Origin: Nemertoderma westbladi
Lineage: Eukaryota; Animalia; Xenacoelomorpha
NCBI GenBank assembly: GCA_032718475.1
Contig: JAUCBJ010000680.1
Span: 1-50,460 of the forward strand
Length of the DNA stretch: 50,460 nt
Direction: 5' to 3'
The notes below the pieces were generated by a model that was not told where the DNA came from, did no database searches, and saw only the letters and a program-made list of their open reading frames with translations. A program made the position numbers and the translations under genes. Of the stretch, positions 1-30,500 are shown in pieces (position 1 is the stretch's first letter; each line of letters begins with the position of its first letter).

Positions 1-1
1 A

Positions 2-3000
2 GAAACTTTCCGTCGGAATATACCTACCGATCGAGAATACGGTAGCCGCGGGGAGGATTATTCGAGAAGAATAAACTTCGATCCCGAACAACACATGCAG
101 ACTGTAGGGCATACTGTAGGTCTTACTGCACATACCGTAGGCCATACTGAGAGAGGCAATGTAGGCGATAGGATAGCGCGGACGACGGGATTAAACCCGG
201 AAGTCGCGGAATACATACCGGCGGGTAGGCCAGAAGCTGATAGGCCTATACCGGTACCAGCACAGCAGTATGACTACAGCATGCAGGGACATAACATATA
301 CCCAGGGGAGGGGGGAATTATTGCGGATAGGTGTATGGGCCCCAACATATTAACATCAACCCCAGTACCAGACATACCGGTGGGGGGGGGACAGGGTGAC
401 ATTCCCCCATCACAATATCAACAATATACCCCGACAGGAACAAGAACGAGACCCCTAGATGAAAACAGGTCGTGTGATACAGACATATGGAGGGGGCCGC
501 TACCCCCGATGACATATCCGAGTCAGAGAAGATCAAGAAATAGGACGGACGAACCGCACCAGACAAGGGAAACTATACAGCACCCGTCGAATCCATTAGA
601 AGCGCAGGCAATGGGGATGGCCACGTTGATCGATGCGTTGAAAACGAGGATCGAATTACCACCCGTGGAACCGTTCAAATTCGATGGGAGCAGGCCGGAA
701 GAATACTTACAGTTTCGGCGAATGTATAGCAACGAAATACTAACAAAAAACTTGACGCAGGCGGAGTGCCTAAAGTATCTACAAGTGTACACGGGAGGCC
801 CAGCATACGATATCGTGAGGCAATACCAAGGAATAGAGGGCGGCTTCACGACAGCATGGCGGGCACTGGATAGGGAATACGGGCACCCGGCCAAGATCAT
901 CAGGCAAACGCTGAGAGGCATAACATCGGGTGGCCTACAGGATAATCCCGTTAGCATTAAGACGTTTGCTAACAAAGTCGAGAAGGCGCTGATCGTGCTG
1001 AAGACGCTAGACGCGCCATACGAGCTCAACGCGTCCAATAACATCACCACGATAGCGCAGGCACTACCGAGCTGGCTGCGCAACAAATGGAGGAAGGTCG
1101 CTTTCTCCACCCGAGACAAGAAGGGTGCGGAACCAGGTTTAGAAGAAATGTCAAACTTCTTAAATTACGAGGCTGAACTAATAACGGACCCAGTCTATAG
1201 TGAAGATAGCCTGGGAAAGGGACCAAAGGCAGATCACTACAGGCCCAAACCAGAGCACAATACATCGAACGCGTTACCGAGACTCAGGCAATCATTGCCA
1301 TATGCAGCGACGCAGGGGACTGCAAGTCCACAGACAAGCGAAGATAGGACAACATCAGGGGGCGGACAGGGGAACAATAACAACATGAATAAACATAACC
1401 CCAATACGTCCAGTAGGTCAAACCCAGTCAATAAGAATAGTAGGGACTTTGGTACGAATATAACTGCGATACGCAATGCATTGTATAAAGAGGGCTACGA
1501 CCCAAAGAGCAAGTGCCAGTTACACGCAAATGCGCTTCATAAAACCATGAACTGCAGGTACTGGCAGGCGCTACCGAGGCAAGACCAGATAGATTACGCG
1601 TCGAGCAATAAAATCTGCTCGCGATGTGTGAAGAGTGGACACAAGGCCAGGGAATGCCAAGAGAAGCCGGTCAAGTTTGGCCAAAGGAGAGGCCAGACGA
1701 TGGCAACAAGCACAATAGGGGCGAAGAAGAGAGGAACAGTGCTACTTGGAGTAGTACCAGTGCGAGTGATCGGAGAAGGCAATCGATCAGTAACAACACT
1801 AATGCTGGTTGATAGTGGAGCTGCCTTCACATTAGTTGAGGAATGGGTAGCCGAAGAAATAGGGTTGAGAACGAGGCCAAGCAGGATGGCGGTGACAACC
1901 ATCTCTAGCAAAGACGAGATCCTAGAGATGAGGACAGGACGGTGCGCAATTGCAGCAGTGGCACCAGGATGCGATTACGGGGCAACCATCGACCCCATCC
2001 AAGTAATAGAGTCAATTAACATCAATGCCAGGCGGCCAACCAACATCGAGGTCGAGCAATACAAATTCCTGGACAACATTGACTTCTCAATCCCAGACGT
2101 GGACGTTAGGAAGGTATCCATCATAGTAGGCATGGACTGCCCAACAGCCCACGAGAGAATGCAAACGGTCTTCGGCGAAGACAAGCAGAGCGACCCGGTG
2201 GCCATACTAACGCCATTCGGGTGGACGCTGAGTGGTCCAATTAAGAGCAAGATACCATTCAGGATGTCGGAGACATCAGGATGCATGTTCGCGGGAACAA
2301 TGCAGGAAATGGGTGACGAGGGAGCAGAGGAGCAGCTTAAAAGACTGCTCAGGCAGGACTTCGAGGGACTGAAAGAGACCGGAGTCGGGACCTCGGTAGA
2401 AGACAAGCAGGCTCTACAAAGTGTGGAGGAATCCATGACGTGTGATGAGGGGCGGTATACAATAGGAATGGTATGGAAACTACCGAAGATACCGCTACCC
2501 GATAATAGAGGGATGGTACTCACGAGACTCCGCAAGCTGAAACAAACACTACAACGGAGCCCCGAGAAGAACGAGTACATTCACAAAACCATTAAGAAGT
2601 ACGTCGAGAAAGGATGGGCCGTGGAGTTACCGGTCGACGAACCGAACACGGACAGGACATACTACCTGCCACTCCACGTAGCTTTAGACCCAAAGAAAGG
2701 TAAACTTAGGATGGTAGTCGATGCATCGGCAAAGACCGACGGAAAGTGCTTAAACGATTACCTACTAGAGGGCCCAAACATATACAATTCGGGCATAGAA
2801 GTACTACTTAGATTTAGGAATGGGAAACACGCCTTCACGTGTGACATAGAAGGCATGTTCAACCAAGTCCGAGTAACAGAGGAAGATAGCGATAGTCAAC
2901 GCTTCTTATGGTATAACGGCGAAGAAGAACCGCCTATAATACCGGCATATAAGATGGTAGTACAAAACATGGGGGCCAAGTCGTCCTCATTTACGACGAC

Positions 3001-5719
3001 TATGGCAGTGAGAGACACGGTAAAGGGGAAGGAGGATAGATATAGCAGTAGGGCCGTCGACATGATCAGACGCGGTTTCTACGTAGACGACGGCATGGAG
3101 TCTGGAAATACGGTTGAGGAGATACTGGGAACAGGGCGCGAGGTTCGCGACATCCTGAGAGGATCCGGCTTCAACCTGACCAAATTCCAATCCAGTTCAG
3201 AAGAATTTATCAGGGAAATAGAGGACAAGAAACCAGAATCGACCATGGACAACCCTACAACAGCCAAAGGACAGGACATGGCGATTAAGAGAACGGAATC
3301 CCAGCAGAAGGCGTTGGGAATCGTGTGGGATAGGAAAACAGACGAACTGAAGTATCAGCTGAGCCAGGAGGGCGCAGACACCCATACGAAGAGGGGTTAC
3401 GTATCGTATATAGCAAGGATATACGATCCCTTAGGCCTAGCATCCCCATTACTAGTCACGGGGAAACAGATACTCAAGAGAGTATATAAGTTGAAGGATG
3501 AGTGGGACGTAGAGGTACCAGAAGACATTAAGAAACAGTGGAGCAAATGGACAGGAGACTTGGAGAGGATGGGAACATACAACATGCCGCGAGTGTATTT
3601 CCCGGACGGGAACATGACGAATCTGGACCTACATATGTTCTCCGACGCGTCGTTAGAGGCATACGGAGCGGCACTCTATTTAGTACAACGAGAGGGGCCT
3701 CACAAGCCCAGACTAGCCTTTAGCAAAGCTAAGTCAACGCCGCCAGATTCAGCATCTGTTTCCAAGTTAGAATTAACAGCCGCGAGACTAGGAGTTAGAG
3801 CCACAGCCTACCTAGTGGATACAATTCCCAACATAGTGGAGACACACTACTGGACGGACTCCATGGTAGTGCTTGGTTGGCTACACAACGAAAAGACGAG
3901 GTACCCGATATTCGTCGCGAATAGAGTGGACGAAATAAGGGCGAGCACAGAATTGGAAAGGTGGCACTACTGCCCAACAGACGAGAACCCAGCGGACTTG
4001 CTGTCGAGGGGCGTGGAACGCCACACTTTCTTAAAGAAAGAAGTATTGTGGCAAAACGGGCCACAATTTCTGAGCGATAGGGAGGCCTGGCCGCCGATGA
4101 GGAAGGTGGACCCGGGCTCGGAAGTAGTATCAGAAGGAGAAGAGGGAGATTCAGAGGGAGAAGAGATATACTCCCAGATGGTGAGGGAGATCAGGGACGT
4201 GCAACCAGGAAGGGAACTGTGCGATAACCCGACGGATAAACTCCTCAGCTACAGTTCTAGTTGGTATAAGACCAAGAAACTAGTGGCGTACTGGAGAGCC
4301 TTTGGGAATTTCCTTGCGGGAGTCGGCAAGGACAAGAAGACCAGGACAACCATAGATCTGGAAGGAGCGGCCAAGGCAGTGATCCGCTACGAACAACGCA
4401 AGAACTACGGCGACGAGGTGGAACGTGTCGGTAACCAACAACATCTCCGACGGGATAGCGAGTTGATCACGCTGTCGCCACAACTCAACGAGGATGGGAT
4501 CCTAGTAATGAATTCAAGGGTGGGATATAACAACAGTATAGTTGTGCCACCGAAACCCATCATCATTCCCACAGGATCGCCTATAGTCCACCAGATCATA
4601 TGGGACTCCCACAAATCGATACTGCATGGGGGCACCAACCGAACCCTCACAGAGATAAGGAGGACCTATTGGGTCAAACAACTAAGGAAGAAGGTTAAAG
4701 CGGTAGTGGGGCAGTGCCAGACCTGCAGACGAGCGAAGAAGGAACGAGCCGTACAGGAGATGGCGCCACTACCGGCGAGTAGGGTAAGACAGCACGACCC
4801 GCCATTTACACATTGCGGTGTGGACATGTTCGGGCCGATAAAGATCAAGGTGATGCGACACACGGAGAAACGCTACGGTATTATCTTCGTATGCAACAAT
4901 ACGCGGGCGGTAGGGATAGAACTCGCCCAAGATGCAACCGCATCAGCCTTCATTAACGCCTTAGAAAGGTTTAGGGACCGCAAAGGTGGGACGATCGCAG
5001 TAATATATAGCGACAACGGCACCAACTTTGTGGGTGCAGAGAGTGAGATGGCAGAGGCCTTAGACATCTTGGAGGGAGAAGAAGTCAGGGCGGCCATGAG
5101 AAGACGACAAGTGAAGTGGGAGAGACGGACGCCGTATGCACCACATACACTAGGATGCGTCGAAAGACTGGTGGGCAGTTCGAAACGTCTAATGACGAAG
5201 CTGATGAACACCCACATGGTCACTGAAGACGTCTTACGGACGGTACTTGCAAAGTGCGAGGGGATCATTAATAGCAGACCGCTATACCCGGAGAATGATG
5301 ACCCTGAGTCACTAGACGTGTTGACGCCTAGCCATTTCCTGATGGAAAGGCCAGCGACCATAGATATGCGGGGTGTAGACCCAGATGATATACACTCCCG
5401 GCAAAGTTGGAAAGTAGCTAAAGCAATTAGCGCAGAGTATTGGAGGAGGTGGGTAGAAGAATACCTACCCACGCTCCATAAGCGAAGCAAGTGGAGGAAG
5501 CCAAACAGGGAGTTGAGAGAGGGAGATCTCGTAATCGTCACGGATGATACTATCATCAACAACCAATGGCGGTTGGCGAGAGTTGTAGGCACCTACTCCG
5601 ACGAGGACGGAAGAGTCCGATCGGTAGAAGTGCGGATAGGTGGAAAGATAGGTGCGAAAGACAGGAAAACCTACAGGAGAGCAGTAGGTAAATGCTGTCT
5701 CCTAGAAGGGGCACCTTAA
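2..5719 (+). CDS. BEL/Pao Gag-Pol polyprotein (Gag, Zn knuckle, aspartic protease, RT, RNase H, integrase with C-terminal DUF5641-like region); 5' incomplete
   Basis: Frame is open from base 2 through ATG 95 to TAA 5719. Gag PFKFDG..EYLQF; knuckles CQLH-x4-H-x4-C and CSRC-x4-H-x4-C (1616-1657); protease LVDSGA (1811); RT YYLPLH, RMVVDAS, CDIEGMFNQV, YVDD (3080); IYDPLG; RNase H FSDAS..AYG, WTDS, NPADLLSRG; integrase H..HGG/CQTC, DMFGP, SDNGTNF, ERLVG; C-terminal WRRWVEEYL. Confidence 0.96.
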   Translation, partial: ETFRRNIPTDREYGSRGEDYSRRINFDPEQHMQTVGHTVGLTAHTVGHTERGNVGDRIARTTGLNPEVAEYIPAGRPEADRPIPVPAQQYDYSMQGHNIYPGEGGIIADRCMGPNILTSTPVPDIPVGGGQGDIPPSQYQQYTPTGTRTRPLDENRSCDTDIWRGPLPPMTYPSQRRSRNRTDEPHQTRETIQHPSNPLEAQAMGMATLIDALKTRIELPPVEPFKFDGSRPEEYLQFRRMYSNEILTKNLTQAECLKYLQVYTGGPAYDIVRQYQGIEGGFTTAWRALDREYGHPAKIIRQTLRGITSGGLQDNPVSIKTFANKVEKALIVLKTLDAPYELNASNNITTIAQALPSWLRNKWRKVAFSTRDKKGAEPGLEEMSNFLNYEAELITDPVYSEDSLGKGPKADHYRPKPEHNTSNALPRLRQSLPYAATQGTASPQTSEDRTTSGGGQGNNNNMNKHNPNTSSRSNPVNKNSRDFGTNITAIRNALYKEGYDPKSKCQLHANALHKTMNCRYWQALPRQDQIDYASSNKICSRCVKSGHKARECQEKPVKFGQRRGQTMATSTIGAKKRGTVLLGVVPVRVIGEGNRSVTTLMLVDSGAAFTLVEEWVAEEIGLRTRPSRMAVTTISSKDEILEMRTGRCAIAAVAPGCDYGATIDPIQVIESININARRPTNIEVEQYKFLDNIDFSIPDVDVRKVSIIVGMDCPTAHERMQTVFGEDKQSDPVAILTPFGWTLSGPIKSKIPFRMSETSGCMFAGTMQEMGDEGAEEQLKRLLRQDFEGLKETGVGTSVEDKQALQSVEESMTCDEGRYTIGMVWKLPKIPLPDNRGMVLTRLRKLKQTLQRSPEKNEYIHKTIKKYVEKGWAVELPVDEPNTDRTYYLPLHVALDPKKGKLRMVVDASAKTDGKCLNDYLLEGPNIYNSGIEVLLRFRNGKHAFTCDIEGMFNQVRVTEEDSDSQRFLWYNGEEEPPIIPAYKMVVQNMGAKSSSFTTTMAVRDTVKGKEDRYSSRAVDMIRRGFYVDDGMESGNTVEEILGTGREVRDILRGSGFNLTKFQSSSEEFIREIEDKKPESTMDNPTTAKGQDMAIKRTESQQKALGIVWDRKTDELKYQLSQEGADTHTKRGYVSYIARIYDPLGLASPLLVTGKQILKRVYKLKDEWDVEVPEDIKKQWSKWTGDLERMGTYNMPRVYFPDGNMTNLDLHMFSDASLEAYGAALYLVQREGPHKPRLAFSKAKSTPPDSASVSKLELTAARLGVRATAYLVDTIPNIVETHYWTDSMVVLGWLHNEKTRYPIFVANRVDEIRASTELERWHYCPTDENPADLLSRGVERHTFLKKEVLWQNGPQFLSDREAWPPMRKVDPGSEVVSEGEEGDSEGEEIYSQMVREIRDVQPGRELCDNPTDKLLSYSSSWYKTKKLVAYWRAFGNFLAGVGKDKKTRTTIDLEGAAKAVIRYEQRKNYGDEVERVGNQQHLRRDSELITLSPQLNEDGILVMNSRVGYNNSIVVPPKPIIIPTGSPIVHQIIWDSHKSILHGGTNRTLTEIRRTYWVKQLRKKVKAVVGQCQTCRRAKKERAVQEMAPLPASRVRQHDPPFTHCGVDMFGPIKIKVMRHTEKRYGIIFVCNNTRAVGIELAQDATASAFINALERFRDRKGGTIAVIYSDNGTNFVGAESEMAEALDILEGEEVRAAMRRRQVKWERRTPYAPHTLGCVERLVGSSKRLMTKLMNTHMVTEDVLRTVLAKCEGIINSRPLYPENDDPESLDVLTPSHFLMERPATIDMRGVDPDDIHSRQSWKVAKAISAEYWRRWVEEYLPTLHKRSKWRKPNRELREGDLVIVTDDTIINNQWRLARVVGTYSDEDGRVRSVEVRIGGKIGAKDRKTYRRAVGKCCLLEGAP

Positions 5720-5760
5720 ATTAGAGTTAGTGTGAAGTTTAGTCGTCCAAGTTTTGGACT

Positions 5761-5773
5761 GAGGGGGGTGGGA
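5761..5773 (+). promoter_or_regulatory. PPT-like G-rich tract directly after pol (possibly ancestral or internal PPT)
   Basis: gaggggggtggga begins 42 nt after the pol stop, where a BEL PPT normally lies. It is preceded by the hairpin gtccaa-gtt-ttggac and followed by agggcg-aga-cgccct and an (aaata)n tract. Confidence 0.45.
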
Positions 5774-5833
5774 TTGAGGGCGAGACGCCCTTCCCACACA
5801 AATAAAATAAAATAAAATAAAAAATAAATAAAA

Positions 5834-6340
5834 GTTAGTTAGTTAGTAGGTACGTAGTACCTAGAGTTAGTTAGTTAGTAGGTACGTAGTACCTAGAGTT
5901 AGTTAGTTAGTAGGTACGTAGTACCTAGAGTTAGTTAGTTAGTAGGTACGTAATGCCTAGATAGAGTTAGAGGGTAGGTAGTACCGATAGTTAGAGTTAG
6001 TAGGTACGTAGTACCTAGTTAGAGTTAGAGTTAGTGGGTACGTAGTACCTAGTTAGAGTTAGAGGGTACGTAATGCCTAGATAGAGTTAGAGGGTAGGTA
6101 GTACCGATAGTTAGAGTTAGTAGGTACGTAGTACCTAGTTAGAGTTAGAGTTAGTGGGTACGTAGTACCTAGTTAGAGTTAGAGGGTACGTAATGCCTAG
6201 ATAGAGTTAGAGGGTAGGTAGTACCGATAGTTAGAGTTAGTAGGTACGTAGTACCTAGTTAGAGTTAGAGTTAGTAGGTAGGTAGTACCGATAGAGTTAG
6301 AGTTAGAGGGTACGTAGTACCACTAGTTAGAGAGAGAGAG
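5834..6340 (+). repeat. Tandem array of taggtac-gta-gtaccta hairpins separated by (gtta)n/(gttaga)n linkers
   Basis: About 3.5 copies of the 32-bp unit gttagttagttagtaggtacgtagtacctaga from 5834, then a 120-bp higher-order period (lines 6001 and 6121 identical, 6241 starts the same way). Confidence 0.92.
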
Positions 6341-6836
6341 TAAGAGGCAAAAGGGGGTAAAATAGGGTATAGATATTAGTTAGGAGTAAGTAGAGTTAGT
6401 AGCGAGAGGGGGGCATATGAGTGCAGCTGGATAAATCGTGTGGCCACACGACGCATACTGCTGTACTGCATAGGCCCACTGATTAGGCCAGAATATGGAT
6501 CAAAGAGAGAACAGAATAAATCCATAGGCAGTAGTAAGTAGTAGGACAGTAGAATCAAAGCAAAATAAATAAATAAATAGAATAGGGCTAAAAATCGGAA
6601 AATAGTGGTAACACAAGAAAAGTCGTTCTAGAACATAATAAAAGTAACGGACAGAAATCGTAAACTAGGCTGATTTACTAGCTCCGAAATTAATTAAATT
6701 AAATTAGGCTTGAAAGGCGCAGTTAAGTAGAAAAGTAGGCCATTATCGAACTGTAGGAAACATCTCAATACATCACTCATCTGTATTGCGCCTTGGTAAG
6801 GCACCACCCTGCAGGTGAGCGAGTGTAGTGTTCGGA

Positions 6837-9371
6837 ATGGCGAGTAAGCTGATCAGGAAGAGAAAGGCGGAGTCAGGAGGAAAAGAAATATTGGTGGATT
6901 TCACCGAAAGACACCCGGAGGAGAAGACGAGAGGATACTACGAGAGGTTGGAAAGGGGTCACGCGGCACGAGCGCTGCAGGATCACTTCCGGGAGGCGCA
7001 CGAACAGCGGTTGGTCGGGACCTACGGGACGCCGTCGCTGGATAACGCAATCTTCCAACACTTCCACTACGTAGTGAAAGGAGACGAGGCGAAGTTCGGG
7101 ATTCCGAAGTATCCGAGGGAATCGCCGAGGAAGGACTGGAAAAGATTCATAGAGTCCGTCAACAGAGGAGGATATATGATCCTAGATGACGAGGGAACCG
7201 TGGAAGACGAAGCGGGATCGAGACGAGGAATGGCAGGATCGGCCAGGACCATACTCTTGCATTTGGCAGCGCCAAATGGGGACATCTTCTTATTCGACTT
7301 AGGGACGTATGGGAAGAAGGACGGGCCGAAATTAGACCGACTGCCGAAAGCGGTACAGGTCTTAGTAAGAGAGAAGTCGACGACGAAAGTGGGATCGGCG
7401 ATTCGCGAGGACGCGGAGAGGATCATCGGTCCGGACGCCACCAACCTCCTGGATATGCAGAAAGTCTTTATGGCTATGACGGCACCGGATGGATTGGGGG
7501 TGGTCGAGAACTTAGGCCAATGCGGGGCGGTGGCGATGGGCCAATTATTGGGGCTCGTATGCCACAAACCAATGGATTGGGGGAAGTTTAGGGAAGAATA
7601 CGGAGCAGAACTAGCGAACTCGCTGAAGTGGGGAGCGAGACCGGGAAAGCAGGAGGTATATAAGTTTCGCAGAGGAGCGATAAAGGTATATCAGAAGCGA
7701 TATATCCTGCAGGAGGACTGGATGATGATAAGTTTACTTAACTTATTCATGACCGTAGTTATCGAAAGAGAACCAGGGGCATTTCTGTTATCGGGATCAC
7801 CCCTAAGCTACAGGAGAGCCTTTAAGACGGCCTTTGACGGTCTGGTAGACCACCCGGGGCTGAAGGGCGAGTCGGTGTACTACAACAGCCGACATCTGGT
7901 AGATGGGGAGACGGATACACCGTATCAGAGATGGGAGCAGCTAGAGATGGATAGACGGGAAGCAAAGCGACTGGAAGAAGTCGCTAGACGGGAGAGGATA
8001 GAAGCAGAGGAGAGGGAAGAGGAGGCCAGGACACAGAGTTATGGCTTCGAGGAACAGGCGGGTCTAGACGAGCTTCATTGGACTTCGTCAGGGAGTTCGG
8101 GGGAGTCTCTAGGACGAGAATTGGGATGGACGGTGGGATCGCCGAAACAGTCGACGTCGGGGTTGCAAACGATGCCCATACCAGCGGGCGCCGAGGGCGA
8201 CCAACCGCCAAGGAAGTTAAGGGAGCTAGAGAGATGGAGAGCTACCGGCGAGAGCCAAGGCGGGAAGGGACATAGTGGATCCATCGGGATACCGGGATTG
8301 GAGACGCTACCGGAAGAAGAGGACGACGACGACGAATTCGGAGAGATACCGCCCATCGAAAGGATAAGCCACTCGGACACGGACTGGGTTGGCGGAAGGG
8401 TGGTGACGGCCAGTGGGGCAAGGGCCTTCTGGAACAGATCCGGCAAGCGGACCTGGGTGCACGAGGGGCCGGCGATGGATTTCGCGGGGAGCACCATCAG
8501 GTTGGGCGAGCAACCGGGGACGGCACCACGGATAGTATTCGGGGAGACGATGCCCGAGAGGGGCGGAGAGATAGACGTGAACAGGGAGAGCAATGTAGAG
8601 AAGTTCGCCTACCAGCGACTCCATAGACCGCGGAGATCGCTTGGGACGAAGGACGAGGTGGGACGCGAGACATTGGTACTCGGCTGCGACTACTGTGGGA
8701 GACAGACCCATCAGGAAAGCAGCTGCCTATACCGGTTCCAACGGGGAACCTTTTGTCTCTATTGTAGAGAACCAAGTCACAGGATGGGGGCGTGTCCACG
8801 GTTGCATAACCGATGTCCAAAGTGCCACTTTCGGGGACACTACGGACGCGAGTGCGACTGGATGAGCGACGAGGAGAAGTTCACGAGGTTCGAGGAGTGG
8901 GCCGACGTCGGGGCCATGACGCGCCAGCGCATGAAGGCCCAAGAGTTCAAGTGGGGTTTCTTCCTCATAAACCAGGAGACCCACATGGAAATAATAAAGC
9001 GAAGGTTACCGTTTACCTATCAAGAGGTAGCTACGGCGGCATCGTTCGCCGGAGTTATGAACACGCAACGGTACCTGGACAGGTGGACACCAGAGAACCG
9101 GAGGGAGTTTAGGGATTTCTTGGCGGAACACGTACCAAAGGCAATGAAGATGATCCTATGGGACGCCACACGAGGGAAACAACCAGGCCATTCTGAGGGG
9201 CCACCGGCGAAGCGGTATCGGGCTTTAATAACACCAGCGCCCAAGGAGCCGACGACCGGGATCAGCAAGGAAGTGGCAGCGAAGGTCCGGAAGCAGAAAG
9301 CGGATGATGCCAGAGGAACAGTGATAACCAAGAAACGGGCCAGGGAGGAGGACGTGAGGAGGTACAGATGA
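6837..9371 (+). CDS. Retrotransposon ORF2: DEDDy-type (WRN/EXD2/Mut-7/RNase D-like) 3'-5' exonuclease domain, acidic linker, three CCHC zinc knuckles
   Basis: First ATG at 6837 (in-frame TGA at 6816). ExoI YMILDDEG (D 7185, E 7191); ILLHLA..IFLFDL; LPKAVQVLV..KVGSAIREDAERI (ExoII D 7410); NLLDMQ; Q..YILQED (ExoIII-like, 7701-7718). Three CX2CX4HX4C at 8685-8855. Basic NLS-like ends (RKRK, KKRAR). Confidence 0.8.
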   Translation: MASKLIRKRKAESGGKEILVDFTERHPEEKTRGYYERLERGHAARALQDHFREAHEQRLVGTYGTPSLDNAIFQHFHYVVKGDEAKFGIPKYPRESPRKDWKRFIESVNRGGYMILDDEGTVEDEAGSRRGMAGSARTILLHLAAPNGDIFLFDLGTYGKKDGPKLDRLPKAVQVLVREKSTTKVGSAIREDAERIIGPDATNLLDMQKVFMAMTAPDGLGVVENLGQCGAVAMGQLLGLVCHKPMDWGKFREEYGAELANSLKWGARPGKQEVYKFRRGAIKVYQKRYILQEDWMMISLLNLFMTVVIEREPGAFLLSGSPLSYRRAFKTAFDGLVDHPGLKGESVYYNSRHLVDGETDTPYQRWEQLEMDRREAKRLEEVARRERIEAEEREEEARTQSYGFEEQAGLDELHWTSSGSSGESLGRELGWTVGSPKQSTSGLQTMPIPAGAEGDQPPRKLRELERWRATGESQGGKGHSGSIGIPGLETLPEEEDDDDEFGEIPPIERISHSDTDWVGGRVVTASGARAFWNRSGKRTWVHEGPAMDFAGSTIRLGEQPGTAPRIVFGETMPERGGEIDVNRESNVEKFAYQRLHRPRRSLGTKDEVGRETLVLGCDYCGRQTHQESSCLYRFQRGTFCLYCREPSHRMGACPRLHNRCPKCHFRGHYGRECDWMSDEEKFTRFEEWADVGAMTRQRMKAQEFKWGFFLINQETHMEIIKRRLPFTYQEVATAASFAGVMNTQRYLDRWTPENRREFRDFLAEHVPKAMKMILWDATRGKQPGHSEGPPAKRYRALITPAPKEPTTGISKEVAAKVRKQKADDARGTVITKKRAREEDVRRYR

Positions 9372-10076
9372 GTTCCCGGAGGCGAGGGAATGAGACTGAG
9401 ACTGGGAGGTGGTGCGCCTGGAAGGCGCCGCATGTAACGTACGAACTATTAAATATAAATTTAATTAATGCAAATAACTATATAAGTGCAATTCGTATGT
9501 ACGTACGTAGTGATTAGCAGTAAAATATATACGTTTGGAGTAAGTACTATAGTCATACAACCTTTCTCAACTAGCTACTGGGACTGGGGGACAATGACTA
9601 TGGCACTATGGACGAGACAACTGACAATTTCACACTTCTTGAGTGCGGCGGCACGAGAGGGGGGGGAGGTTCGTCAGGAGAGATAAAAACAGTCAAAGTG
9701 GACTTGAGAATCGGAATAAGAGTGATAGAGTGAAGTGCGGAGAGAGTGCGAACGCAATCCTAGTGTGGGGGGGGGAGAATGAGAGGCTGAGTAAGGGACG
9801 AGGAGGTCCGGGGGTATGAGAGAGTTAGGGTGAGAGTGAAGGTGAGATAGGGCGAGAGTGTTGGGGAAACAAAAATCGCGTGAAGAGGTGAGCGCGATCG
9901 GCCCGACATGAGACGCCAGGCGTAAAGGGTAGCGTTATCATACCCAGAGGGAGCGGCCCGGAAAGCCGACTCCGAGAGAAAAGATTTCCACCCCACACCC
10001 GATGCTAGATCGGGATCCAGCGGGATTGTAGCGCACTTTTTTGGTTGATGCTATCTTCTTACCGGGAAGATAGCAT

Positions 10077-10085
10077 GGGGGGGAG
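10077..10085 (+). promoter_or_regulatory. Polypurine tract (plus-strand primer) before candidate 3' LTR
   Basis: gggggggag directly followed by TGT, and preceded by an 11-bp perfect stem atgctatcttc/gaagatagcat (10048-10076). Confidence 0.7.
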
Positions 10086-10624
10086 TGTTAGCTTATTCAA
10101 TCCCGCCAACACCCCATAAAGTTATTAGCCGATAAGCAATATTGGGAGCCGCGAGATTGGGTAATTAACCAACTCGCGCCATCCCAATAAGAATGGGAAG
10201 GAAGCACACAATAGAGGGTCAGGGGCCAAACCCCTAACCCAAGGAGAACAGGTGGAGTTAACGGGAATACTCCACGGGGCGCCAACAAGGGTATTAACCA
10301 ATCAGAGGGGGGAACGGCATCGATTGAGTAGCAGTAAGGCCACCGTGCAATATAACCAATAACCTATTAATCAGTGATTCAGTTATCTCAAGTGCAGCAG
10401 TGCTAGCGTAGGGTACAGCCAATTAGTTTAGTTAGGGGATCACGGGACTTTAGTTACCGTATCCCGCCTTGTACACATTCACAACATATCTATATCTTAT
10501 AACCTTCTATTATACACCAAACTTCAGAACTCAGTCACTTTATTTCATCCTTATACACGGCGGGGACGCGTGGACTAAATTACCACAACCGGATAAATCG
10601 GGATCCCTCTTGGATCCCGTCACA
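10086..10624 (+). repeat. Candidate 3' LTR (539 bp)
   Basis: Starts TGT after the PPT and ends ACA exactly where the 17-bp satellite begins. Contains recurring aaccaa(t) motifs, TCAGT initiator-like motifs and a terminal hairpin cgggatcc-ctctt-ggatcccg. The 5' LTR is not in the window, so this cannot be confirmed here. Confidence 0.65.
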
Positions 10625-12367
10625 ACCGGTACATCCATGGTACCGGTACATCCATGGTACCGGTACATCCATGGTACCGGTACATCCATGGCACCGGTAC
10701 ATCCATGGCACCGGTACATCCATGGTACCGGTACATCCATGGTACCGGTACATCCATGGTACCGGTACATCCATGGTACCGGTACATCCATGGTACCGGT
10801 ACATCCATGGTACCGGTACATACATGGTTCCGGTACATACATGGTACCGGTAGATACATGGTACCGGTACATCCATGGTACCGGTACATCCATGGTACCG
10901 GTACATCCATGGTACCGGTACATCCATGGTACCGGTATATCCATGGTACCGGTACATCCATGGTACCGGTACATCCATGGTACCGGTACATCCATGGTAC
11001 CAGTACATCCATGGTACCGGTACATCCATGGTACCGGTACATACATGGTTCCGGTACATACATGGTACCGGTAGATACATGGTACCGGTACATCCATGGT
11101 ACCGGTACATCCATGGTACCGGTACATACATGGTTCCGGTACATACATGGTACCGGTAGATACATGGTACCGGTACATCCATGGTACCGGTACATCCATG
11201 GTACCGGTACATCCATGGTACCGGTACATCCATGGTACCGGTACATCCATGGTACCGGTACATCCATGGTACCGGTACATCCATGGTACCGGTACATCCA
11301 TGTAACGGTACATCCATGGTACCGGTACATCCATGGTACCGGTATATCCATGGTACCGGTACATCCATGGTACCGGTACATCCATGGTACCGGTACATCC
11401 ATGGTACCGGTACATCCATGGTACCGGTACATCCATGGTACCGGTATATCCATGGTACCGGTACATCCATGGTACCGGTACATCCATGGTACCGGTACAT
11501 CCATGGTACTGGTACATCCATGGTACCGGTACATCCATGGTACCGGTACATCCATGGTACCGGTACATCCATGGTACCGGTACATCCATGGTACCGGTAC
11601 ATCCATGGTACCGGTACATCCATGGTACCGGTACATCCATGGTACCGGTACATCCATGGTACCGGTACATCCATGGTACCGGTACATCCATGGTACCGGT
11701 ACATCCATGGTACCGGTACATCCATGGTACCGGTACATACATGGTTCCGGTACATACATGGTACCGGTAGATACATGGTACCGGTACATCCATGGTACCG
11801 GTACATCCATGGTACCGGTACATCCATGGTACCGGTACATCCATGGTACCGGTATATCCATGGTACCGGTACATCCATGGTACCGGTACATCCATGGTAC
11901 CGGTATATCCATGGTACCGGTACATCCATGGTACCGGTACATCCATGGTACCGGTACATCCATGGTACCGGTACATCCATGGTACCGGTACATCCATGGT
12001 ACCGGTACATCCATGGTACCGGTACATCCATGGTACCGGTACATACATGGTTCCGGTACATACATGGTACCGGTAGATACATGGTACCGGTACATCCATG
12101 GTACCGGTACATACATGGTTCCGGTACATACATGGTACCGGTAGATACATGGTACCGGTACATCCATGGTACCGGTACATCCATGGTACCGGTACATCCA
12201 TGGTACCGGTACATCCATGGTACCGGTACATCCATGGTACCGGTACATCCATGGTACCGGTACATCCATGTACCGGTACATCCATGGTACCGGTACATCC
12301 ATGGTACCGGTACATCCATGGTACCGGTACATCCATGGTACCGGTACATCCATGGTACCGGTACATC
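10625..12367. repeat. 17-bp minisatellite (accggtacatccatggt)n, about 102 copies
   Basis: Direct reading. Contains the palindromes gtaccggtac and ccatgg. A variant triplet (catacatggttcc / catacatggtacc / gatacatgg) recurs six times. Confidence 0.98.
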
Positions 12368-21500: not shown

Positions 21501-24500
21501 ACCCCAATCACTAAGTCATTAAGTAGCCCAAGTCATTGAAGAAAATAACCCTGTGGGCCTGAAGTGTGATAGCGGGATTCCTGGAAAACTGGAATCGTGG
21601 TGGGGGGGTTCCCACCAACTGACCAAGTCCTTCTCATTATATACCCTTTGTGACTTGTCTATGTACTGTACATGGCCATATGCAGTTATGTGACACCCAC
21701 CAGAACAGCCAGCCATTACAGGTCCGGTACGGAAAAATAGCCTTAAGTTGCAACCTTGCAAGTGCAGATTAGCAGTAAATTGTGCCTGACATTTACCATA
21801 GGCTCCATCAGGCTTCCTGGAAAACACGTAACAGCGCAACGAGGCACTACAGCGCCCAGCGCTACAGCGCAACAACTCTATAACCAATCGTCAGCATTGG
21901 CGCCACAACCTAAGATTGGGTTATTAATTCCACTATAATTCCATTGACTTCTACAGTCTACACGCTCCGACAACTGTTACTCTACACGCTCCGACAACTG
22001 TTACCCTACACGCTCCGACAACTGTTACCCTACACGCTCCGATAACTGTTACCCTACACGCTCCGACAACTGTTTCCCTACACGCTCCGACAACTGTTAC
22101 CCTACACGCTCCGACAACTGTTACCCTACACGCTCCGACAACTGTTAACATACACGCTCCGACAACTGTTACCCTACAAGCTCCGACAACTGTTACCCTA
22201 CACGCTCCGACAACTGTTACCCTACACGCTCCGACAACTGTTACCCTACACGCTCCGACAACTGTTACCCTACACGCTCCGACAACTGTTACCCTACACG
22301 CTCCGACAACTGTTACCCTACACGCTCCGACAACTGTTACCCTACACGCTCCGACAACTGTTACCCTACACGCTCCGACAACTGTTACCCTACACGCTCC
22401 GACAACTGTTACCCTACACGCTCCGACAACTGTTACCCTACACGCTCCGACAACTGTTACCACGCTCCGACAACTGTTACCCTACACGCTCCGACAAGCA
22501 GAACAACGAAATCTGCCTTGTCGCGGTTTGACTGGTCCTCTTGTTGCAAGCCTAACCATGGAGCCTATTCTGGAACCATAGCAACGGTTGTTATTGCCGT
22601 TTTACCAAGGACCAAAACCTCCCAAACCATATTGATACTGAATGACAATTATAACAATGGGTTGTTGTTATTAGTTGTTATTGTTTAGAGAGGACTCCGT
22701 CAATATCTTAAAACTTATAAGGCCCTCAGGATCAGAGGGGATCCGAGAAAAAAAGTTCGGCTTTCGGAATTTAGTTCAAAAGTCAACTATTTTTTTGAAA
22801 AACCCCATTAACTAACTAAAATTTGCAGTGATAAGTTAATTATAACCACTTTAACTAAATAACATAAAATAACAATGGGGGGGTGTATAGATTATTATTA
22901 AACAGATGAAAGTTCAACTAGTTGAACAGCACTGCTTATGACATAAGCGAATATTACACCTGGGTCTCCAATATCTCTACAATTCTCCATTCAAATGAGT
23001 TCCATCCAGGTTGCAACCCTGTTTCCTGTTTCTTCATATTGGAACTGAAATGTAACGGGATGAGCTGCCTGGTCAATAATATTTACTGGCACTTTATCAC
23101 TTATAGAAGTATCTTTGCGATGAACATATACGTTGTAACATTTACACAATTCACTGCCATCAATTTTCGGAATTATAAATCCATAATATTCTGGATAGTA
23201 TTCATTAACATAATAAAGACCATTATATGTTTTAGTAACATCCAATAATGTATTGGTAACTTCCCCACTGCCTTCATTGACCATCTGCGCTGCACGGCAA
23301 TTAAAGTCCCCTGCCACTGTGACGATTGAGGCTCTGTTTCTTATTCTTTCACATAGACGTGCAGTGTAGAACCGAAATTTTACATGTGTATTGTTCTCTG
23401 GTGTCATCCGATGCCCATTAATATGGATATCTTTAGGCATAGTAAGCATAGAATAACATTCACAAAGCTCCATTCCATTTACTTCCGGTATAGTAAACCA
23501 ATAATTTTTTCCAACCAATAGTACTCTCCCATTGTATGTTACACCGTTCTTCAGTAAGTCCACATTCACTGTACCATTAGGAATATTGTCGGTAGCCGTA
23601 GCGTCTTTTTGTGACATGTTAATATTTCGAGCTATCTCGCAGGAGGTATCACCACGTATTGTAACACATGTAGCATGTCTTATTCCGAATGAATCATATT
23701 TATACTGGAATAGAATTTGTCTATAATGTAAATTCCCTATCCAACGATAATTATTTATATGGATTCTACTTTGAATGAAGTATATACTGTGGCAGTCACA
23801 AAGTACTTTGTTGTTACTATCTAAAGGCAGTATATACCCATATTTATATATATAGAATGCACAACAACCTAAATAAGTTGTGTCCTCCTCTATGTTTGGT
23901 TTTTCATAGCTGCGTCCTGAGCAACAGGCATCCACTCCTTGAACACTAACCCATGTAACTTCATAAACATATGGTTTATTTCTATCCATTGTACGTTTGC
24001 ATTGAAAGATAACAGCGTCGCCCTCCCGCAAACTCAGCAGGTACCCATTGTTATGGACTTTTGATGTATAAAAGTGCACAACGGTTTCCCTCAGTTTTGT
24101 AGGTTCTATAAACCCAAATTTGTTGTTAACATCAAGATATAAACAATGACCAGAGTATGTTTTATTTTCCTTCATAATACATCCCTCTTCCAAATTAGTT
24201 GCAAAATGCAATTTGTTATGGTCTAGCTGCGTATGCTTTAGTCTTGCGTTTAGCCCTTCTAAATGATTTACTAACAAACTGTTGGAAAATTGCTGAATAT
24301 CAGATTCATGTTGCATAGTACGTAATGGTGGCTGGTGGAATTCTAGACTATGTTCCACTCTTTGCAACAAATAATGACCTGGAAACGGTTCCGGTTGCAT
24401 ATAGGTACCACTTTGAGGTGGTACAGGTTGTATAGTGCCATGGCTTATTGATGGCAGAGGGAACTTTTGACCTTGTTCGACTCCTTGCTGCACATGATGA

Positions 24501-27500
24501 CCTGGATACGGTATCGGTTGCATATAGTTGCCACTTTGAAATGGTACAGGTTGTATAGCGCCATGGTTTATTGGTGGCAGAGGGAACTGGTGACCTTGTT
24601 CGACTCCTTGCTGCACATGATGACCTGGATACGGTACCGGTTGCATATAGTTGCCACTTTGAGATGGTACAGGTTGTATAGCGCCATGGCTTATTGGTGG
24701 CAGAGGGAACTGGTGGCCTTGTTCGACTCCTTGCTGCACATGATGACCTGGATACGGTACCGGTTGCATATAGTTGCCACTTTGAGATGGTACAGGTTGT
24801 ATAGCGCCATGGCTTATTGGTAGCAGAGGGAACTGGTGATCTTGTTCCATTCCTTGCTCTACATGATGAGTTTGAAACAGTCCCGGTTGAATACGTTGAG
24901 TTTGATACACTTCTGGGGTTTGCATAAGGGTCATATTTGTGTTTGGAATAGCGTGGCACTGGAGTGTTTGATATCCTTCTTGGAGCATATTAAGTGGAAT
25001 GTTTGTGGGAGGTGGGGGGTTATTGGGAGGCCTACTTGCTGGTCCTTCTGCTTGCACAATGCTCGTTTTTAGCACGTTTTGGACGGATGGTTGACTTTTT
25101 ACTGGCCCACGAAACCATTCTCCTTTATAATTGCACCTCCTAAGTAGAATTTGAGTAAGTTCTTTTGGGGTGATTTGTAGAACACTCATCGCTTCTTCCA
25201 AAAGTTCACTTGTCCATATTTCGACGAACGAGTCGAGTTTACTGCCAAGGTTATATAAAATTTGTAAGTGGTTTATCTCTGAACTGGGAAGAGAGGTGGA
25301 ACAATAGTACCAACTAATATGTTCCTGTAATATATCAATTTGTTTTTCTACAATCATCTCCAATATTTTATGTAATTTGTTTAGGTGTGTCTCCTTGTCA
25401 AAATCTGCCAGTGAATTGCATTCTTTTTCTACAAACGTAAGGAACCTTGAATAATTTGTGTTGACCAGTGTTAAATTATTTTCGATTTCTTGGGATTTTG
25501 ATGAACAATTTATATCCAAACGCGAAGAATAGATATCTTTCATCTTTGAAAATTGATCAACCAATCCCACATCCAGGTTTGATGCCACATTATGATTCGC
25601 AGCCATTTTGTGACAGGCATCAGCCTACATGCACACTCTTATATTTTTGTATACTATTCCTTCTAGAGCATTATTCAGAATTTCGAGATATTTTAATCAT
25701 ACTAGGCCTATGTACTGTATAATAATAAAATAAAAATATCTAAAACATAAAATATATAGCTAAAATAAATATTTATGATTAAAAATTAACTACCTACCAT
25801 AAAATAACTATTTTATAGCTACCATAATATTGTGGGAAGGTCTATGTTCTAGAATTTTAGAATTTACTAGATTCAAAATCGTCTATCAAACATATAACAT
25901 AATTTATAAAATAATAATATAAATTTTAGTGCCCAGCCAAAGCAACGCACCTTAATCAATCTACAAAGCACCTTAAGAATTTCAACACAACTTAAAACAG
26001 ATAATAATCGCTTATATACCGGCCTTGGATCGTCTTATAGTAGCTGTAAACGTCACTTCCCTATCCCACTCGCACCTATCGTCTCTGTTTGCGTACAAAT
26101 TTAGTAAGAGGGAAATATTTTCAAGACTATCACCAGGCCAGGGTCACTGACATACAAAGAGACTGTCAACCACAACTGTATTCAACAGTGCTATGACAAC
26201 AGTGCAGTCAGTATCTTTCGACAGTAAACATAATAATTGCATCCGGCAATACTTTGACTTGACCTAGTGAACCGTATATAACCTACCGCAATGACGATTT
26301 TAATGAGATATTTGGTATTTTGTCTTTTTTTACCGTTAATTGTCCTAATTATCGTTTTTACTTAATTTCCCATACGTGATTAACTGTGCAATTCTCTTTT
26401 ATATTGTCGGCTAAGAGCGAATTAAATTAAATGAATGGTTGGAATGTTGAATATATTAATCAGAATGTTGAATATATTAATCAGCTGCCACACTACGAAT
26501 AATAATAGAATATCGGTTTAGCTATTGTGCAGTTTATTAAGAGTATCATTTAGTGTATGGCGGGTAGGCTTAGGGTTAAGGTTGCGACACATACTGTACC
26601 TGTATGTTTAGCATGTATTTATATTTGTTTGTGTTTGTGTTTGTGTTTGTGTGTTTGTTGTTCTTCGATGACCCTGGGTTGAGAAGTATATTTTGGGCTA
26701 AATTTTGGGTAAAATCTATATTTTTTTATTGGGGGTGTGTAAGACTCCTGTTCTTCCTTTAAGTTAATATATACATACATAACAACCCCCTGTTAGTCAG
26801 TATGTCATTAACATCAATTATCATCTTATGAAAGTGGAGCACAATTCCGACATTACTGCAAATCATAAAATCTTATATAAATTTTGTACTGTGTGTGTGC
26901 CCTAGCACTCTACCAGTTTTCCATTGGTAACATATTTACACACCATAGGCCTATAGGGTTTCTGTGGTCTGATCTCTGTTTGGGCTAGGGGGTCACTGAT
27001 TTGATTAATTTACTGTAGTTTCACATTTACATACGAAGTACATTCGATCATATAAAGTGTTACACCGGACAGCCGGATTTCCAAATTGTAAGACTCCTGC
27101 AGCCCTGCGATGTTACCGTACCTAGAGCAGGTGGCAGGGCCGCTCTATGTCAGTATGTAATACTGTAAACTGTAATAAGTATTTTATTATTATTATTCCC
27201 GGTAGTTCCGTTTCCGTACGCGTAGGTAGGTAGCTACAAGCTAACGCATCTGTCAGTCTGTTACGGTACTGTATTGATTGATAAACAGATAAATGTCGGA
27301 TTACCGCTATCGGTAATGGCTAACAGGCTAATCAGCTAATTGTTAGCTTTGATGTTGGTTGTGTTGTGTAGGTCTATCTATACTCTATTTATATTTATAT
27401 CTTTATATTTTATTCTGTAATGAATACAACGGCGAGTCAACAACGGGCAGAACTCATAAAACTCCAAAAGAAAGAAACCGAATTTCAGATGCGAACCTTT

Positions 27501-30500
27501 ATGAACTTATACAACGAGATTACCAGTAAATGCTTTTCCCTCTGCGTCAACCGATTTAATCGGTCGTCTGTAGAAGACTCGGACGAGATTTGCTTAAACT
27601 CGTGCGTTTCTCGATTCGCGAAACTTAACCAGCGTTTAACTTTAGCGTTCGTCGACAATAATCAGAAGAAACTTCAACAACAAATGCAGGAAGCAGCAAT
27701 TACTTCGGCTAATTCAGCAGCTGCATTCTCTAACCCGGTATAAGGCAATAAACTATCTCACAGCACTGCAGTAAGAGCAGCATAGTTGTATACATACAGG
27801 GATATCTGCAGAGAATAACTAAATTATAGGCCTATTGCATATAAAACCATATCGCTCGCTACCCTACCGGTACCGTCGGCAGCTTTTCAAACCTGAACCT
27901 ATTTATTACAAAATTAGCCATCTACAAGACGACCAAAGTTAATTAGTTTATTGACTGGTAGGTAATATTGGCGGTAATAAAAACAGAAATCTGGAAATGG
28001 AATCCCCAGCGGTTGATTTAGAGAAACAGCGAAGTATTCTAGAACGTCTCAGTCTGTGGGACTCTAAAGAGAACCCGCTGGCTGGGTTAACGGAAAGTCA
28101 GAGAGACGACGTCTCTCTACTGAGCTCGATAATCAGTAACACCCGGTTACCCGGGCAACTAGAACCCGTTAGCAACGCGACCCCTAGCAACCAATCGCAA
28201 TTAACCCACAAAGCGTCTCTAAGGATCGCCGACGAACTGCAAGAGGCGACGAATTCCGACGAGTTACACGAACTCGCGGAGTTACGGGACTCGCTAGGCT
28301 CGTCCGTGGACGAGTGCGAAGCGATGCTGACGGCGGTGGACGCGGGACTCGTCCGGCTGTCCCGTCTGTCCCGCGAGTTGGCCGGCGTGACCGCGAGTAC
28401 CACCGCGCTACACGACGACTGCGACGAGCGCGTCCGACAGCGGGGGGACCTCGCCGCGAGCGCCGAGTCCCTCGCCCAACGACTGAGTTACTTCAACGAG
28501 TTGGAACGACTCGACCAGCGGCTCAACTCGGGCGGGTTGTCGGCGAGCTCCGATGGTTTCCTCGTTGCGCTCGGTCGTATCGACGAGTGCGTCGCCTTCC
28601 TCCGCGCGCATCCCGAGTACCGTGACTCCGCCGTCTACCTCGCCAGATTCAACCAGTGTCTCAACAAATCCCTAGGGTTAGTGAAAGGTTACGTGGAGAC
28701 CGCGCTAGTTGGCGCTACCGACGCGCTTATTAAGCGCGAAGGCGAGGCAACGCGTAGCGATAATGCGGTAACCCTGTTCTACGGGAAGTTCCGCGCCAAC
28801 GCGCCGCGCATTAAGAGTTTAATGGAGCGGTTGGAGCGCCGCGATGGGTGCGCGGCCGAATACCGCGCGGTGTTGGAGGAGTGCCGCACGTGCTACGTGT
28901 CGCAACGCGAGCGACTAGTGCGTCCCTCGGTGGTCGCGGCCATGGGGGAGCTAGCGAGCGAGCACCGCCGCGACCACTGCACCATGGTGCGCACCGGAGC
29001 GGTCTTTATGGTGCATCTCTCCCGCGACGAGTACCAACTCTACCAACACTTCTTTACGCGACCGTGTAAGCGTCTAGACGCTTTATTAGAGTCGCTATGC
29101 GCCGCGCTATACGATATATTCCGTCCGATGGTAATCCGAGTGAACCATTTAGAGACGTTAGCCGAATTGTGCGCGATCCTTAAGGACGAGATGCTGGAGA
29201 ACTACGTGCAGAGAGACCCCGAGGAGTTGGCCGCCTTGGGGAACGTGTTCACCCAGATGCTGGAGGACGTACAGGAGCGGTTGGTCTACCGGACCTCCAT
29301 CTACACGCGAACCGACATCCTCGGCTACTCGCCCAGCCCCGGGGACCTCGCCTACCCGGATAAACTCCTCATGATGGAGTCGATAGCCTCGAGTCTCAAT
29401 AATCGGTCGAACAGCCTCGATTCCGAGGGTTTCGAGTCGGTTTCCATGTCGGACTCGGTCGTCGGACAGTCGTCGGTTAGCCCCGCGGACATCCACGGTA
29501 TGTGGTTCCCCACCGTCCGACGCACCATGGTCTGTCTCAGCAAACTCTACCGCTGTCTCGATAAGTCCATCTTCCAGGGATTGAGTCAGGAAGCTCTATC
29601 GATGTGCGTTGTCTCCTTAGAGAGCGCGAGCAGTCGGTTGGTAGCGGAACGCGGTACCGTACACGGTCGGTTGTTCCTCATTAAACATCTACTGATCCTC
29701 AGGGAGCAGATCAGCCCGTTTAAGGCGGAGTTCTCCATAGGGGAAACCTCCATCGATTTCTCGCATACGGCGTCCGCGGTCCGCGGTTTCTGGTCCCACA
29801 AACGCGACGGTAAACTCTTGGCTTTATCCTCGGAGAACGCCTTCCTCGCGCTGCTACTCGAAGGCTCGCCCCAAGCCACGGAAGTTCGCCACGACTCGCG
29901 CAAACAGGTTGACGTCCATCTCAAACAGAGTTGCTTGCGATTCATCGACGAGTCTTCGGTTGGGCTCGTTAAGGAGTTGCGGGATTTCGTTGACAAGGCC
30001 AAAGTGATAGTCGAGTTGAAGAAGCAAGGCGAGACCGGAGTTTGCGTGAAGGATCAGCCGTGGGGTAGCCCGGAGACGATCCACGACCTGGTCGCTTCCA
30101 CTAGCAGGAACGTTAAGACCAAGTTACCGGGGTTACTGTCTACCATGCGTTTATATTTAGCCAATAAGGAGACTGAGTTGGTTCTATTTCGGGCTATTCG
30201 CAGTAACGTTCAGTCCGTCTACAGCGACGCCTCCCGTTTAGTTACCGATACTTACGACGAGGAGAGCGTCGCTATTATTGGTTGTCCTTCGGTTGAGGAA
30301 CTTAATCTAATTTTATCTGTCAGTTTATTTAATTAAATGTCTCCCATTCGGTGTTTTTCAACCTGATTCGATTATTTTCTCCAGATAAATTTATTTTTTT
30401 TTATTTAATTATTGTTAAATTGGCGATACAATTATATTATGTCCGGGGTATTTGTGGGTCGATATAGATTCTTTTAGTTTTGTAACAAACTTATGTGGAA

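Follow-up and report, generated by a model that had tools for sequence, protein, structure and literature searches.

Long terminal repeat (LTR) retrotransposons belonging to the BEL/Pao group have been described as comprising gag-pol and an occasional env, and the ICTV profile of the Belpaoviridae has gag, pol and env only (PMC8742986). In those Belpaoviridae (Semotivirus) with an env-like gene, such as Tas, Cer7 and Atlas virus, the extra gene lies between gag-pol and the polypurine tract (PPT) with the 3' LTR. A different kind of accessory gene is known from bdelloid rotifers, where Juno and Vesta (Ty3/gypsy-type) and Athena/Terminon carry an open reading frame (ORF), ORF3, for a DEDDy-type exonuclease whose activity is undemonstrated (Rodriguez, Kenefick, Arkhipova 2017, PMC5408684, used throughout from part of its text). 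Among cellular enzymes, Trypanosoma brucei RNase D (TbRND; PDB 7c42-7c4c) joins an exonuclease domain by a 28-aa linker to four tandem CCHC fingers; single-stranded RNA is bound by these fingers, which greatly increase cleavage by the exonuclease domain (PMC7797062, likewise from part of its text). Here we describe a BEL/Pao element of the xenacoelomorph Nemertoderma westbladi, located in a stretch of 50,460 nucleotides (assembly GCA_032718475.1, contig JAUCBJ010000680.1, positions 1 to 50,460 of the forward strand; hereafter the window), which carries in the env position an 844-aa ORF2 (6837..9371, + strand) combining a DEDDy-type exonuclease domain, a long linker, a triple CCHC knuckle and a helical tail. 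Nuclease accessory ORFs of LTR retrotransposons are already known, and it is the carrier and the architecture that differ here; a gene of the ORF2 type is apparently undescribed both in BEL/Pao elements and as a knuckle fusion. Our analysis also recovers what an earlier sequence-only reading of this DNA had missed, namely a whole lineage of such genes with intact-site and pseudonuclease branches.

ORF2 is an open frame from the ATG at 6837 to the stop at 9371 on the same strand as gag-pol. The sequence-only reading had placed an intact 844-codon ORF between a BEL/Pao pol and the PPT/LTR on one strand, with the purine-rich composition of pol; both points hold, the PPT lying at 10077-10085 and GC skew and AT skew being positive throughout gag-pol and ORF2. 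It was also right that no transmembrane segment is obvious: by hydropathy only, with no signal-peptide predictor, ORF2 has no strongly hydrophobic segment, the highest 19-residue Kyte-Doolittle mean being 1.3. Thus, the transmembrane anchor or fusion glycoprotein expected of an env is not seen in ORF2, whose top fold matches are all exonucleases. Unlike the extra genes of Tas, Cer7 and Atlas virus, ORF2 encodes a predicted soluble nuclease-fold protein and no glycoprotein.

With ORF2 alone, Pfam gave no family at E<=1, a PDB sequence search gave just two weak knuckle matches, word-index homologue searches with aa 20-340 gave no match, and viral contigs searched with ORF2, the knuckle motif and the RNase H region gave none either. 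An exhaustive HMMER search recovered 73 proteins at E<=0.001, nearly all of them via the knuckle region; two of these (P0047 and P0051) fit neither the exonuclease nor the knuckle domain profile. We aligned ORF2 with 25 of the longer homologues (alignment A1, itself without a match in the word-index searches) and found that their N-terminal parts, mostly not the basis of retrieval, align as an exonuclease domain. A profile of these 25 homologues without the window row, its columns having been built with that row present, gives 91.7 bits for aa 75-310 of ORF2 and 28-63 bits for six long family proteins outside A1. Against the PDB, the A1 profile finds TbRND best (9.8e-10, for the exonuclease and knuckle stretches together), along with EXD2 (1.5e-8), WRN (2.6e-4), Egalitarian (2.3e-3) and Mut-7 (0.015). 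We accordingly mark a DEDDy/RNase D-like 3'-5' exonuclease domain at aa ~75-310 (7059..7766, +), on the profile and the predicted model.

The AlphaFold model of ORF2 has a mean pLDDT of 59, with the exonuclease core and the knuckles at 80-92 and the linker below 50; in the model of the exonuclease domain the core segments lie at 80-92 and the loops and later helices lower. The Foldseek rows listed for the ORF2 model are DEDD-type exonucleases only, with Egalitarian first, followed at the top by TbRND, Nibbler, Exd1 and EXD2 (E ~1e-5 to 1e-4 for Exd1 and EXD2). Structural alignment by VIA-align gave Z 14.2 for Nibbler (7jw2; rmsd 3.2 over 202 residues), 13.4 for WRN, and 12.7 for TbRND (rmsd 3.8 over 200 residues); Nibbler, WRN and Egalitarian fall at Z 13-14, and Nibbler, NrnC, WRN and Egalitarian are tied within ~1 Z. 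The N-terminal domain is hence predicted to adopt the DnaQ-like alpha/beta fold, which agrees with the WRN/EXD2/Mut-7 context that the sequence-only reading had assigned to it. Nibbler/Mut-7, EXD2, WRN and the pseudonucleases EXD1 and Egalitarian share only 11-17% identity with ORF2, no orthology is shown, and none of them is element-borne.

The three CX2CX4HX4C zinc knuckles noted earlier are exact motif matches starting at aa 617, 640 and 660 (8685-8726, 8754-8795 and 8814-8855, +), and the window has a single occurrence of their pattern, against 0/100 shuffles. Their zinc ligands are invariant or nearly so in A1 and in a second alignment, A2, where the invariance is partly forced by the search pattern, and the knuckle region is the most conserved part of the ORF2 family. 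Upstream of it lies the linker, aa ~406-610 (8052..8666, +), poorly conserved in that A1 displays no conservation there, and predicted to be disordered (pLDDT mostly <50). Downstream, a conserved helical extension of no known family (8856..9029, +) has residues G692, T695 and G707 kept in >=90% of A1 rows. Knuckles and tail together are modelled confidently (pLDDT 77 overall, knuckles 91-95); this unit gave weak knuckle matches only in Pfam, no PDB-sequence match and no Foldseek match at E<=0.001, though a known fold is still possible.

The order of an exonuclease domain followed by tandem CCHC fingers is that of TbRND (PMC7797062), and the top Atlas row for the homologue P0010 is a euglenozoan exonuclease-CCHC cluster (0.86), which we take as a lead only. 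ORF2 is nevertheless not a TbRND ortholog: it has three knuckles, ~300 aa between the domains, an extra tail and 15-17% identity. As the score of the exonuclease part alone to TbRND is weak (0.029) and below that of EXD2, the shared architecture may be convergent. ORF2 and bdelloid ORF3 are alike in encoding an RNase D-like DEDDy protein from where an env would lie, in lacking a transmembrane segment and in retaining an acidic site that includes a D-to-E change, function being unproven in both (PMC5408684). ORF2 differs in its BEL/Pao carrier and in having three CCHC knuckles and a conserved tail fused to the exonuclease domain, whereas for the rotifer elements the consulted part of that report mentions knuckles in gag and pol only.

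The carrier is assigned by its single gag-pol ORF (2..5719, +; gag, protease, reverse transcriptase (RT), RNase H and integrase), which has 1905 aa and is 5'-open at the window start; the window opens within gag, and the 5' LTR, primer-binding site and target-site duplication fall outside it. Pfam recognizes Peptidase_A17 (5e-39), DUF5641 (4e-24), Integrase_H2C2 (2e-12) and DUF1759 (9e-11), and the domain order DUF1759, aspartic protease, RVT_1, Peptidase_A17, integrase, DUF5641 is that of BEL/Pao; the motifs YVDD, DAS, WTDS, NPAD and SDNG are all present. Between pol and ORF2 is a non-coding spacer (5720..6836, +) with a tandem array inside it at ~5836-6332; across 26 relatives the gap from pol to the first ATG ranges from -319 to 2148 nt. 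Just 5' of the ORF2 ATG, window 6790-6840 holds GTAAG donor-like and pyrimidine-CAG acceptor-like sites as candidate splice signals. At the other end, ~700 nt past the ORF2 stop, a 9-nt PPT (10077..10085, +) immediately precedes the 3' LTR (10086..10624, +; 539 bp, TGT...ACA), in keeping with the PPT of ~10 nt and the 0.2-1.2 kb LTR with TG...CA ends of BEL/Pao elements. Contigs of run X6 depart from the sequence before 10086 (two) and after 10624 (four), and the summed contig depth in X1 and X3, which is no copy number and served for the LTR edge alone, falls ~tenfold past 10621. The element is highly repeated in the host runs, with 30,989 X1 contigs on 1-10620 and 30/30 bins covered in X1, X3 and X6; this coverage shows many divergent copies and gives no copy number. 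Run X5, labelled with a different organism and of guessed RNA status, covers parts of pol and ORF2 with contigs of low depth and was not counted as evidence. A 17-bp satellite (10625..12367, unstranded) adjoins the LTR in the flank, outside the element.

To find further loci we used a degenerate pattern built on knuckles two and three, which retrieved at least 120 metagenome stretches, with long flanks for 80. The pattern hit 12 stretches in prokaryote-binned contigs and none in viral contigs, and 124 of 132 stretches among the matches listed are members of the ORF2 family by profile. Counting as an upstream pol any same-strand sequence that BLAST matched to the RT, RNase H or integrase of the window, we found a BEL-like pol upstream, among the matches listed, in 32/34 loci with >=5 kb of upstream sequence and 38/46 with >=3 kb; many loci come from few related assemblies and are thus not independent hosts. 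Pfam scans of the upstream ORFs detected Peptidase_A17 in 23/25, the other two being integrase-end fragments with DUF5641, and the exonuclease domain was detected in 50/57 loci with >=2 kb upstream. In one locus (L023), repeats of 797 bp that are 95% alike flank pol together with an ORF2 remnant. As for the two exceptions among the 34 long loci, L022 retains the DUF5641 integrase end between direct repeats and L012 is a remnant. These observations support the view that BEL/Pao elements regularly include ORF2, against its reading as a separate insertion; the linkage to pol that the sequence-only reading had proposed to test is seen in both the long loci and the congruence of trees given below. 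That ORF2 is a passenger or separate insertion without a role for the element is hardly credible. In the runs no single contig spans both pol and ORF2, deletions remove part of ORF2 from some copies (joints 8849-9394 and 8168-9141), and one of the 34 long loci (L012) lacks BEL sequence; against these points stand its location inside the PPT/LTR, the pol linkage, the tree congruence and the purifying selection, which already largely refute this explanation. No joint skipping the whole of ORF2 appears among the 15 shown of 44 joints, a weak result as the contigs are short.

Several of the relatives depart from this plan. In L124 (3545-9538, -), a BEL/Pao gag-pol of the same lineage bears a full deoxynucleoside kinase domain at aa 583-778 upstream of the RT (Pfam dNK 6e-46). 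L022 (5187-10931), already mentioned, has lost most of pol, with only the DUF5641 end recognizable, and keeps the exonuclease and knuckle parts with a stop between; this element looks non-autonomous. L051 (1-4767, -) has a 1589-aa frame without a Pfam match, the upstream end of which lies ~235 nt past a 1552-aa ORF2; this frame may be the permuted start of a gag or else a third gene. In L047 (3341-6529), L059 (6880-9648) and L061 the knuckle domain occurs without a detectable exonuclease domain even after profile iteration, a different N-terminal module being possible. The family contigs L123, L124, L127, L128, L130 and L132 are filed within bacterial genome bins and are probably eukaryotic contamination.

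We compared trees for 21 elements with a continuous RT-integrase region and an exonuclease-bearing ORF2, at ~30% pol identity. The pol and ORF2 distances are strongly correlated (Mantel rho 0.912, reached in 0/2000 permutations), and 7 of the 8 ORF2 splits with support >=0.9 recur in the pol tree. ORF2 therefore reads, from these sequences, as an old accessory gene of a BEL/Pao lineage that co-diverges with pol. Compared by description only, the rotifer ORF3s have been read as recent acquisitions (PMC5408684), whereas ORF2 co-diverges with pol over deep branches.

The active site displays both conservation and repeated loss. The sequence-only reading had named ExoI D-x-E, ExoII D and an ExoIII-like Tyr, and these stand as D117/E119, D192 and Y289; for the ExoIII acid it had left open Y-x3-E or Y-x4-D, and the family alignment places it at E293 (Y-x3-E), not D294. 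The site codons begin at 7185 (D117), 7191 (E119), 7410 (D192), 7701 (Y289) and 7713 (E293), all on the + strand, and give a DEDDy site in which the canonical ExoIII Asp is replaced by Glu. Among the 25 homologues this column has Asp in 12 and Glu in 7. The exonuclease domain is present in 83 of the 88 family proteins examined, of which 72 have all five site columns filled and are scorable: 44/72 keep the four acids, 26/72 have lost two or more, and 2/72 are between. The pseudonucleases fall into a single large clade (1.0) plus several smaller groups, while the five D-E-D-Y-E proteins, including that of the window, form one clade (FastTree 0.943). As the Glu is kept across long branches along with the other three acids, it is better read as an inherited, tolerated variant rather than decay, which eases the earlier doubt on ExoIII and leaves catalysis by the window copy likely, judged from the alignment. 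The opposite view, that the window's own ORF2 is a pseudonuclease with a non-functional site despite its four acids, we hold to be unlikely. It could appeal to the non-canonical Glu, to pseudonucleases being common across the family, and to the mere 11-24% identity of the exonuclease domain between the window and linked relatives; yet in 5/5 Y-x3-E proteins the D, E, D and Y persist over long branches where pseudonuclease clades scramble those columns, and bdelloid DEDDy ORFs with a D-to-E change were judged possibly active (PMC5408684). In a further clade (L010, L044, L077, L079, L124, L127, L128, L130, L123 and L132) the ExoIII Tyr is changed to His or Asn with all four acids kept.

The dN/dS comparison called for earlier points to constraint throughout. 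In the host runs, 23 of the 40 best-supported of 1134 variants among copies, a selected subset, fall in ORF2, and 17/23 are synonymous, against 22% expected, or 33% for transitions (p ~6e-7 and ~2e-4). Across 10 hand-chosen close relative pairs, in which dS is often near or >1 and the values are thus rough, dN/dS is low: for the exonuclease domain 0.08-0.18 in five intact-site pairs and 0.21-0.46 in four pseudonuclease pairs, with one pair saturated, and for the knuckles 0.02-0.24 in eight pairs, with two saturated. By their substitution patterns, both domains are thus under purifying selection, pseudonuclease relatives included.

As the leading explanation we tentatively posit that ORF2 may blunt host small-RNA silencing of the element. 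A fuller form, which we regard as doubtful, is that a BEL/Pao lineage, ancient and so far undescribed, encodes a counter-silencing, knuckle-guided exonuclease that trims or captures host piRNAs/siRNAs and repeatedly became a binding-only pseudonuclease, mirroring the host pair of Nibbler and EXD1. Nibbler/Mut-7 and EXD1 have small-RNA roles. These roles, discussed also in PMC5408684, and the arenaviral immune-suppressing exonuclease as a viral precedent (PMC7968707, in the part consulted) are why we prefer counter-silencing to handling of the element's own RNA or to work on DNA. ORF2 would be translated as a separate protein acting in trans; by analogy with TbRND its three zinc knuckles would grip single-stranded RNA, whose 3' end would be fed into the DEDDy domain and held and, in the window copy, likely trimmed. 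The targets would be small RNAs or their precursors, and the pseudonuclease relatives would work through binding alone. Given that conservation is highest in the knuckles and that proteins with a dead site are still under selection, the function common to the family is probably RNA binding, trimming being optional, and the separation of ORF2 from gag-pol makes action in the cell more likely than in the particle.

Several observations weigh against this reading. The tied structural matches include DNA exonucleases (WRN and the apicoplast polymerase) as well as NrnC, a nano-RNase, so that RNA or piRNA is not singled out by the fold. With Glu in place of the ExoIII Asp, catalysis may be reduced or lost, and as the ORF2 linker far exceeds the 28 aa of TbRND, the coupling of knuckles to the site may differ. 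Basic clusters at both ends of ORF2 resemble nuclear-localisation signals, and a role in RNA export would fit these equally well. As to the lineage, the window pol shares 31-37% identity with 35 database pols whose ORF2 status is unknown and only 27-31% with 20 ORF2-bearing pols, being thus closer to the former, so that a single origin of the ORF2 lineage is not shown. In a 34-row pol tree (15/21 ORF2-bearing and 19/35 others), built without named-clade references (Sinbad, Suzu, Tas, Pao, BEL), the elements from metagenomes group as one clade (100) with the window as a long branch beside it; holding the window and the ORF2-bearing pols together is not rejected (AU p 0.551), which is no proof of a clade. 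The window's lineage may instead have captured ORF2 independently; among hand-picked pol matches on short contigs, 28/30 have <1.8 kb outside the ORF, a biased pick in which the contigs may be cut.

An explanation that we consider rather unlikely is that ORF2 is an Egalitarian/EXD1-like adaptor for the element's own RNA, in export, localisation, stability or packaging, with catalysis incidental or trimming only its own RNA or tRNA primer. The knuckle region being best conserved, the loss of >=2 catalytic acids in 26/72 members on several separate branches that are yet constrained, and Egalitarian as the top Foldseek row would all suit such an adaptor, for which CERV of Cer1, an LTR-element RNA-export protein, is a precedent (PMC10309623, in the part consulted). 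However, 44/72 very divergent proteins keep the four acids, the intact-site pairs have the lower exonuclease dN/dS, and the third Cys-His box is kept in 7/8 scorable ORF2-bearing gags. That box is missing, by pattern, only in the window among the eight gags, and in 9/42 nearby pols. Replacement of the gag nucleocapsid by ORF2 was considered separately and rejected, as 7/8 scorable gags keep the third box; a replacement of RNase H was likewise rejected, as RNase H motifs are present in pol.

Action on DNA during replication, by cDNA proofreading or end trimming before integration, seems quite improbable. WRN and family-A polymerase exonucleases do match at Z ~13, and the one relative with a deoxynucleoside kinase domain in pol hints at investment in DNA synthesis. 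Such a role needs catalysis, though, which 26/72 members lack while being under selection; ORF2, lying outside gag-pol, has no evident way of entering the particle, and the RT, RNase H and integrase motifs are present. Proofreading is accordingly the weakest of the functional options raised by the sequence-only reading, as many relatives lost catalysis yet remain under selection.

Our literature search found no BEL/Pao exonuclease gene and no such knuckle fusion in any transposon; Repbase/GyDB entries, supplements and subscription papers were not covered, and a Repbase note is quite possible. In the parts of the main texts consulted, the word 'exonuclease' is absent from PMC3118150, PMC554778, PMC6238403, PMC6086898, 10.1101/825315, PMC12440569, PMC12451622 and PMC11673190, and PMC6431247, PMC5718144 and PMC6338049 mention such retroelement domains only via the rotifer work. 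The DEDDy ORFs that the sequence-only reading had placed in Ty3/gypsy elements of bdelloid rotifers are matched by a published report (PMC5408684); their nematode counterpart was not confirmed, with no 'nematode' in the consulted part of that report and no 'exonuclease' in that of the PMC6086898 main text. The invisibility of ORF2 to Pfam in the window copy and in nearly all relatives scanned may explain the oversight. To the gag-pol and occasional env of BEL/Pao elements ORF2 adds a third kind of gene, travelling with pol at ~30% identity, and were the counter-silencing proposal true, it would be a case, in animals, of a transposon encoding an enzyme that suppresses small-RNA defence. Within the family, one protein occurs naturally with an intact, a variant or a dead site, and purified family proteins would make the role of retroelement DEDDy genes, and animal transposon silencing suppressors, directly testable.

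Elsewhere in the window, an 877-aa frame at 22991-25624 (-) contains an internal repeat of 123 bp and weakly matches the cold-shock domain (4e-5). Two further genes lie between spectrin-repeat-like exons of a large host gene, a Tim10/DDP-family gene at 27372-27743 (+) and a GC-rich, single-frame COG3 gene at 27955-30336 (+). Finally, a 13.6-kb array of a 37-bp unit occupies window 34922-48578.

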